Positions 57,075-57,291 of a stretch of 64,000 bases of DNA are shown here, piece by piece (positions within the stretch are counted from its first letter, which is position 1; every line of letters starts with the position of its first letter). This DNA comes from Escherichia coli (GTDB taxonomy: Bacteria; Pseudomonadota; Gammaproteobacteria; Enterobacterales; Enterobacteriaceae). The position numbers and the translations under genes are program-made. The notes under the pieces are model-generated. The model ran no database searches, was not told where the DNA came from, and was given only the letters and a program-made list of their open reading frames with translations. The DNA lies in NCBI RefSeq assembly GCF_003334255.1, contig NZ_QOWU01000005.1; one strand, written 5' to 3'.

Positions 57075-57291
57075 TATTTAACCTTCCTAAGACGCATTTT
57101 CATGACAACCACGGAGGAGGTCATTTACCACAAACGATCGTTTATAACGATCGATATGATAGTAACGATCGATGTATTCTATTAACTTGAGAAACACAAC
57201 GCAAGGGGACAACCCGGGTATGGCTGCGTTTGCATAGTGTTTTCATGGAGTTAAAAATCTGTAACAACAGCCTGGTACATCACCACCGGGT

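Follow-up and report, generated by a model that had tools for sequence, protein, structure and literature searches.

The 217-nucleotide (nt) intergenic gap at 57075-57291 (- strand) of a 64,000-nt stretch of Escherichia coli DNA (contig NZ_QOWU01000005.1 of assembly GCF_003334255.1, the whole stretch being called the window below) lies between a YeeP-type GTPase gene and a dynamin-like gene. This gap likely contains an agn43-type epigenetic phase-variation switch, operated by Dam and OxyR, which would drive a five-gene operon encoding a dynamin-like GTPase, an RdcB-like protein, a patatin-like phospholipase and two further proteins. With such a switch in the gap, the operon would probably be expressed in only part of a clonal population. 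A familiar switch would thereby be joined to an unexpected and widespread cargo.

Three closely spaced GATC sequences following a YeeP-type GTPase gene recall agn43 (flu), and the yeeP-flu regulatory region of strain K-12 was chosen for alignment for this reason. The two sequences were in register at the -35 hexamer, the -10 hexamer and all three GATCs. When the 64-kb window was searched using blastn, the 101-nt agn43 regulatory region of K-12 matched 57191-57135 (E = 2.5e-6) and the cah regulatory region of O157:H7 matched 57186-57118 (E = 2e-8). By blastn and local alignment together, the switch module with significant similarity to agn43/cah regulatory DNA occupies 57191-57118 (- strand). 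Junction mapping indicated that the cah-homologous stretch reaches approximately +52 of the predicted transcript (57118); beyond it come about 32 nt (57117-57086) unique to the dynamin junction, and then a ribosome-binding site shared with the O157 dynamin gene. All of the sequence-level features by which an agn43-type switch would be recognised were found. Only the controlled gene departed from expectation, the downstream gene encoding a dynamin-family GTPase and not an Ag43-family autotransporter. Homology to the characterised agn43 promoter supports the proposal of a first-pass annotation of this DNA that promoter and control signals of the dynamin/patatin operon probably lie in the gap.

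On the - strand the gap reads ...TTGCGT-tgtgtttctcaagttaa-TAGAAT-acat-CGATC-gttactatcatat-CGATCGTT-ataaa-CGATCG.... The candidate -35 hexamer TTGCGT (57204-57199, - strand), to which its role is assigned by homology, aligns with TTGTCC of K-12 agn43 and was invariant in 11 BLAST-ascertained and 17 unique dynamin-class sequences. A spacer of 17 nt, the same in the window and in K-12, separates it from the -10 hexamer TAGAAT (57181-57176, - strand), which belongs to the block TAATAGAAT, invariant over all cargo classes. Transcription would start at the G of the first GATC (57170, - strand), the position to which the annotated 5' end of the K-12 small RNA IsrC aligns; in K-12 this RNA spans the interval from the switch to flu and its 5' end is the G of the first GATC. 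The agn43 transcription start was reportedly mapped to the same G by Wallecha et al. in 2002, who are also said to have found that OxyR(C199S) protects -16 to +42 and that a 101-nt region is enough for phase variation. The window equivalent of that footprint we take to be 57186-57129.

The three Dam sites are GATC-I (57170-57167), GATC-II (57152-57149, 18 nt after GATC-I) and GATC-III (57139-57136, 13 nt after GATC-II), all on the - strand. A repeat finder returned three copies of (T/A)AACGATCG(A/T)T in the gap at spacings of 13 and 18 nt. Clustering of GATCs was rejected as stand-alone evidence because shuffled sequences yielded about 1.2 such clusters per 64-kb window, which is not significant, and because a second cluster occurs in hisB. 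The latter (32033-32053, inside the hisB coding sequence) was the only other cluster of three GATCs within 40 nt in the window and looks like chance. A 'terminator-like' match at 57153-57135 was also discarded, as it consists of GATC-II and GATC-III, two palindromic CGATCG units forming an inverted repeat.

All three Dam sites fall within a predicted OxyR-type operator of 37 nt, ATCGatcgttaCTAT-catatcg-ATCGttataaaCGAT (57173-57137, - strand), in which four tetramers are spaced as in the OxyR consensus. Both strands of the 64-kb window (approximately 128,000 positions) were scanned with the Toledano/Storz consensus ATAGnTnnnAnCTAT-N7-ATAGnTnnnAnCTAT. The match at 57173-57137 scored 16/20 and was the best in the window; none scored 14 or 15, and the next best scored 13, so that this match goes beyond what chance would give. 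Dynamin-class copies scored 15-16/20, compared with 14/20 for K-12-type agn43 sites of shown function. A single predicted OxyR site would thus cover the putative start and contain the GATCs, and within the gap no binding site beyond this OxyR/GATC module was found. The expectation of the first-pass annotation that control signals lie here is supported; it had identified no operator by eye, and a specific candidate can now be named.

Both Dam and OxyR are present in E. coli. By analogy with agn43, RNA polymerase would use the TTGCGT-17-TAGAAT promoter and begin the transcript with the G of GATC-I. In the OFF state OxyR bound to the 37-nt site over the start would repress transcription and shield the GATCs from Dam, leaving them unmethylated. 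In the ON state Dam would methylate the GATCs after replication before OxyR rebinds; OxyR binding would be lost and the operon transcribed. Either state would be inherited for many generations with occasional switching after replication, giving ON and OFF subpopulations within a clone. The start, OxyR binding, methylation sensitivity and switching are thus predictions for this locus, made from a Dam/OxyR mechanism that the available text of two sources gives as well established for agn43 (PMC2909390, PMC3764049) and as not depending on OxyR's oxidation state (PMC2909390).

Sequence constraint was assessed in 11 E. coli genomes obtained by BLAST of the whole 271-nt region and taken mostly from the divergent end of the ranking. 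Metagenome loci were unusable for this purpose because the pattern used to find them required TAGAAT and the GATCs. The -35, the -10 and the three GATCs together comprise 24 nt, and 0 of the 31 variable positions of the 217-nt gap fell among these (hypergeometric P = 0.02); for the 69-nt core from the -35 to GATC-III it was 0 of 13 (P = 0.0019). The blocks TAATAGAAT, CGATC, ATCGATCGTT and CGATC did not vary in an alignment of 11 sequences drawn from two genera and three classes of cargo, in which the flanks had almost completely diverged. In E. coli STEC409 a small rearrangement was seen just after GATC-III (equivalent to 57131-57135 of the window), with CGATCGATATGATAG in place of CGATCGTTTGTGG and the GATCs kept.

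The pattern of variation bears on whether the switch is a relic, that is, whether the promoter is real and the GATC/OxyR module was inherited from an Ag43 ancestor, with uniform expression and no heritable ON/OFF states. The operon junction lies only about 50 nt after the start, so that recombination could have carried the module along, and clusters of three GATCs are not rare by chance. Even so we consider a relic unlikely, since variation in the dynamin class avoids the GATCs and the promoter hexamers, the OxyR match exceeds that of functional agn43 sites, and two derivatives of strain MP1 (see below) differ strongly and independently of medium in expression of homologous operons. In addition, the K-12 alignment covers the -35 through GATC-III, which is the promoter/OxyR region said to be sufficient for switching.

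The gap was present (at least 80% coverage) in 1,984 of the 5,426 complete E. coli genomes, as a direct switch-dynamin junction. Its flanks in the sampled genomes were almost always a GTPase gene, or a remnant of one, and a gene annotated as 'dynamin family protein'. When the first 400 nt of the dynamin gene were used, the direct-junction class comprised 1,992 genomes at an identity of at least 95%, and an O157-type dynamin allele (90-95% identity) was found in 477 further genomes. The arrangement of the O157 type was inspected in one genome, O157:H7 Z1811 (1797-10354), where the order is GTPase, switch, cah, a 110-nt spacer, dynamin, RdcB-like and patatin-like. No obvious terminator was seen after cah in Z1811, and the dynamin operon may therefore share a transcript with cah and vary along with the Cah phase. 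The operon is downstream of the switch, either directly or behind cah, in the genomes examined. The switch core alone was found in 3,718 genomes, which carry a median of two copies and at most six; copies of lower identity precede Ag43/Cah genes.

Pattern scans were extended to one representative genome per species (strict pattern) and to metagenomes, from which 120 more loci were obtained with a pattern requiring TAGAAT and the GATCs. A scan of viral contigs for the switch pattern gave no match. The strict scan returned two matches only, both in Citrobacter: C. braakii (4551-5015, - strand) and C. amalonaticus (941-1337). In these a third cargo lies behind the switch, a protein of 154 amino acids (aa) with a signal-peptide-like N-terminus and no NCBIfam match; the YeeP-type GTPase upstream is 59-61% identical, and the -35 is ATGACA. 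Downstream of 131 switch copies the cargo was of the Ag43 family in 108, the dynamin operon in 20 and the small Citrobacter protein in 2, the remaining copy (1) being an evidently random soil match. A YeeP-type GTPase lay upstream of 128 of the 131.

The ends of the gap are fixed exactly by the TGA stop codon of the YeeP-type GTPase gene (57294-57292) and by the ATG of the dynamin-like open reading frame (ORF) at 57074, as given by the ORF calls. The GTPase gene, a backbone gene of CP4-44-type islands situated 5' of the switch, spans 57292..58203 (- strand) as its longest ORF; its RefSeq coding sequence in E. coli S88 is 873 nt, and a profile search with the protein matched GTPase models only. 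The RefSeq annotation of the near-identical S88 DNA likewise leaves 217 nt between the genes it names 'GTPase family protein' and 'dynamin family protein'. No ORF of at least 50 aa lay wholly within 57075-57291, and an Rfam scan of 56800-57500 found no riboswitch or small RNA in the gap; its single match, to a microRNA, lay inside the GTPase gene and was attributed to chance. On these grounds the non-coding gap of 217 bp described in the first-pass annotation stands, as do the identities it gave to the flanking genes: the upstream protein matched GTPase models and the downstream one is Dynamin_N/CrfC-like. YjcZ/RdcB-like and patatin-like genes come next.

The same annotation had named transcriptional read-through from the GTPase gene, with no internal promoter, as the scenario that would overturn its proposal. 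A terminator scan detected no intrinsic terminator between the GTPase stop codon and the -35, as such transcription would allow. We nevertheless regard the absence of an internal promoter as very improbable, given that the gap is homologous to the mapped agn43 promoter and that the upstream gene is not always whole. Of the 38 dynamin-type genomes among the matches listed, 14 give this gene no name other than 'hypothetical protein'; three of these were fetched, and each held a 435-nt remnant of the GTPase gene with the switch intact. In CFT073 and SMN013SH2 the upstream GTPase gene was frameshifted. The gap and the operon were reported as intact in the 14 genomes and in both of these strains. 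The unit that differed in MP1 was, in the accessible text, described as a five-gene dynamin/RdcB/phospholipase operon (PMC12922286), which likewise argues against pure read-through. In the CFT073 PAI-aspV copy (6484-9534) the dynamin gene is itself frameshifted and the switch intact.

The window proved to be the CP4-44 island slot adjoining the his operon. Positions 57844-57289 correspond to the 3' part of K-12 yeeP (a pseudogene region; 96.6% identity) and 49821-34124 to K-12 yeeS through hisD (99% identity). Between these blocks K-12 has isrC-flu-yeeR (5.1 kb), and the window has the gap, five co-directional genes, a DUF932 gene and an antirestriction gene (7.5 kb). From synteny on both sides it follows that the dynamin operon occupies the flu slot, in the same island and at the same chromosomal site. 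The CP4-44-type backbone was found by K-12 synteny and S88 annotation, with the YeeP-type GTPase upstream, yeeS-yeeT-cbeA-cbtA-yeeW downstream and the his operon adjacent. [quoted passage not shown] This neighbour was seen in islands of both the dynamin and the Ag43 type, and fits the 'EcoKI' neighbour reported for PAI-aspV of MP1.

Gene 1 of the operon (54678..57074, - strand; 798 aa) encodes the dynamin-like GTPase, with matches to NCBIfam CrfC over its full length (E = 1e-166) and to Pfam Dynamin_N (1.6e-17). It was classed as a paralogue of CrfC/RdcA rather than an equivalog because its CrfC score of 556 bits is below the cut-off of 1146 bits. Gene 2 (53776..54681, - strand; 301 aa) encodes a YjcZ/RdcB-like protein (Pfam YjcZ, 4.7e-70) named 'diguanylate cyclase regulator RdcB family protein' in RefSeq, and gene 3 (52709..53779, - strand; 356 aa) a patatin-like phospholipase by profile matches and RefSeq. 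Genes 4 (51890..52681, - strand; longest ORF 263 aa, the RefSeq coding sequence being shorter) and 5 (51464..51874, - strand; 136 aa) received no family assignment, having no significant match in Pfam or NCBIfam. Genes 1 and 2, and likewise 2 and 3, overlap by 4 nt; the spacings before genes 4 and 5 are 27 and 15 nt. The five-gene unit likely ends at an intrinsic-terminator-like hairpin at 51322-51293 (- strand; 13 pairs, of which 8 are G-C, then a T run). When the operon proteins were screened using PADLOC v2 no known anti-phage system was matched, and a 'defence' label for the operon is for this reason unproven; marginal matches at the domain level only were to LeoBC, LeoA and a phospholipase effector, with none for genes 2 or 4.

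The predicted 5' untranslated region of 96 nt (57170-57075, - strand) runs from the putative start to the ATG and holds a Shine-Dalgarno sequence, AGGAAGG (57082-57088), 7 nt upstream of the ATG. A possible anti-Shine-Dalgarno sequence, CCTCCTCC, was noted at 57113-57120 in the junction-specific part, and in the predicted RNA fold the Shine-Dalgarno sequence pairs with CCUCC. The fold is weak evidence (z = -2.4; 3 of 200 shuffles folded as well) and comes without covariation evidence; such pairing could add a second, translational layer of control. An inverted repeat of 13 nt (57192-57204 / 57230-57242; arms 25 nt apart and 85% complementary) overlaps the -35 with its 3' arm and has no T run after it. 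Strain LR-31 appears to retain a shorter version of this repeat via changes on both arms.

Published expression data bear on the operon. Pick and Raivio (BMC Genomics 2026) compared MP13 (a Kapi1 lysogen) and KP7 (a non-lysogen), separately constructed derivatives of E. coli MP1 (PMC12922286). According to the accessible text, the lysogen showed strong up-regulation of homologous dynamin/RdcB-family/phospholipase operons, one on PAI-CFT073-aspV and one on 'island 8' (PMC12922286). That on 'island 8', a five-gene cluster (SID94_19700-19720), was up-regulated more strongly than any other gene set in both media (PMC12922286). The difference between MP13 and KP7 was seen whatever the medium and did not go along with the lysis-lysogeny decision (PMC12922286). 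The CFT073 PAI-aspV copy was found to have the same switch as the window.

In two media the Kapi1 lysogen expressed the operons more highly than the non-lysogen did (PMC12922286), as would be expected if the gap were an inducible promoter and the operon responded to prophage, infection or membrane stress, a form of control that is compatible with phase variation. Responsive control is in our judgement quite improbable. By the authors' own account regulation does not track the lysis-lysogeny decision (PMC12922286), MP13 and KP7 are independent constructs, the OxyR/GATC module is the sole binding site found in the gap, and switching at agn43 is independent of the OxyR oxidation state (PMC2909390). 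An inherited ON/OFF difference, fixed by single-colony bottlenecks, would explain the MP1 data at least as well as prophage cross-talk. The operon hyxRAB is reportedly phase-variable under an invertible promoter (work of Bateman and Seed in 2012). It was the other island operon consistently up-regulated in the MP1 study (PMC12922286), the available text of which does not mention phase variation (PMC12922286).

A clonal phase-state artefact in strain comparisons has been documented for agn43 (PMC3764049, as far as accessible). In the plasmid curing of Nissle 1917 a 'massive' rise was described for one of three Ag43 copies, Ag43c (PMC11056357), which is probably the same clonal-state pitfall. 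The MP1 (PMC12922286) and Nissle 1917 (PMC11056357) studies both contain very large differences in expression at loci behind this switch family; in the accessible part of neither paper is clonal phase state among the causes tested.

Several points weigh against a phase switch in the gap. All functional claims for the locus rest on homology. The -35 matches the consensus at only 3/6 positions, and for this reason a generic promoter scan did not list the agn43-type promoter; it was alignment to agn43 that placed a probable sigma-70 promoter in the gap. GATC-I and GATC-II are 18 nt apart compared with 19 in K-12, a spacing of 18 nt that is also found in the Ag43-linked switch copy of strain LR-31. 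Two variants alter OxyR tetramers, at 57172 (SMN013SH2) and 57161 (O157 strain 493/89), and the OxyR part is somewhat less rigid on that account. That TAGAAT and the GATCs are conserved among the metagenome loci is a product of the search pattern, and only the BLAST-derived set is unbiased. As to expression, the result is put down to prophage cross-talk by those who obtained it in MP1 (PMC12922286), the study had two replicates with reads multi-mapping between the two operon copies (PMC12922286), and MP1 copies carrying this exact gap could not be confirmed, the homologue inspected being that of CFT073 PAI-aspV. The generic scan listed an overlapping TTAATA-18-TATCAT (57185-57156, - strand; 9/12), a minor possibility whose -10 lies between GATC-I and GATC-II and to which homology with the agn43 start as mapped lends no support.

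The Ag43 switch, a textbook example of bacterial epigenetic inheritance, has been treated as the regulator of a single adhesin family. A wider reading, to which we give about even chances, is that YeeP/CP4-44-type islands carry the agn43 switch as a portable phase-variation cassette, that approximately 37% of complete E. coli genomes express the dynamin operon only in a heritable subpopulation, and that the 'strongest prophage-induced genes' of MP1 are phase variants. The cargo slot would then hold Ag43/Cah, the dynamin/RdcB-like/patatin module, the two in tandem as in O157:H7, or, in Citrobacter, a small secreted protein, so that island cargo would be exchangeable behind a fixed epigenetic switch. 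If true, this would amount to bet-hedging of a candidate membrane-remodelling, defence or cyclic di-GMP-linked system.

The accessible text of the MP1 study states that regulation of the dynamin operon 'has not been described' (PMC12922286). A search of the open full-text literature, with subscription literature outside it, found no paper linking the dynamin/RdcB/patatin operon with Dam, OxyR or phase variation, and the dynamin locus is not mentioned in the available portions of methylome and dam-mutant papers (PMC4659465, PMC4490391, PMC4921776, PMC8287963, PMC3893438). If the switch operates as proposed, an uncharacterised operon in more than a third of E. coli genomes would gain a concrete and testable regulatory mechanism, and a different reading of the published MP1 result would be offered (PMC12922286). 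Transcriptome or phenotype differences at the operon between strain derivatives may then reflect clonal phase state alone, as for agn43 (PMC3764049). It would further suggest that only a fraction of cells keep ON a membrane-active module (dynamin plus phospholipase) that is costly or risky, a partial state that would be relevant if the module acts in phage defence, vesicle formation or biofilm signalling.

Among known systems, the Eleos or 'Dynamins' anti-phage system (LeoA, LeoBC) resembles the operon in that its dynamin-family GTPase is likewise carried by a mobile island, with defence genes beside it. It differs in its partner genes, and the PADLOC matches to LeoBC and LeoA were marginal and confined to the GTPase domain, with no match at the level of the system. 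Related at the protein level is the K-12 pair RdcA (CrfC/YjdA) and RdcB (YjcZ), to which gene 1 corresponds by full-length CrfC alignment and gene 2 by membership of the YjcZ family; yjdA and yjcZ are adjacent and look translationally coupled, as do genes 1 and 2 here. The accessible text gives about 30% identity between the RdcAB core proteins and their dynamin-operon homologues (PMC12922286). Unlike the K-12 pair, the pair in the window is joined to a patatin-like lipase and two unassigned genes, is island-borne and lies behind a predicted phase switch.

The Salmonella gtr and opvAB switches also have GATCs inside OxyR half-sites; there expression is heritable and methylation-dependent (PMC2909390, PMC4856963, as far as accessible), and here the same is proposed from the DNA sequence. 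In the Salmonella systems the OxyR sites are alternative and mutually exclusive, lie upstream of the promoter and include four GATCs in two pairs (PMC2909390), and OxyR acts as both activator and repressor, whereas the gap has a single predicted repressor site over the start, as in agn43. The gap has no sequence homology to these systems. The agn43 (flu)/cah switch differs in its cargo, an autotransporter adhesin compared with a five-gene cytoplasmic/membrane operon here, and in its 5' untranslated region of roughly 220 nt, compared with a predicted 96 nt here and unrelated after about +52. GATC-I and GATC-II are 19 nt apart there and 18 nt here, and the OxyR match is 14/20 there and 16/20 here. 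The two share homologous DNA, the location downstream of a YeeP-type GTPase gene within a CP4-44-type island, the -10 block TAATAGAAT, and three GATCs in register within an OxyR-type site that spans the start.

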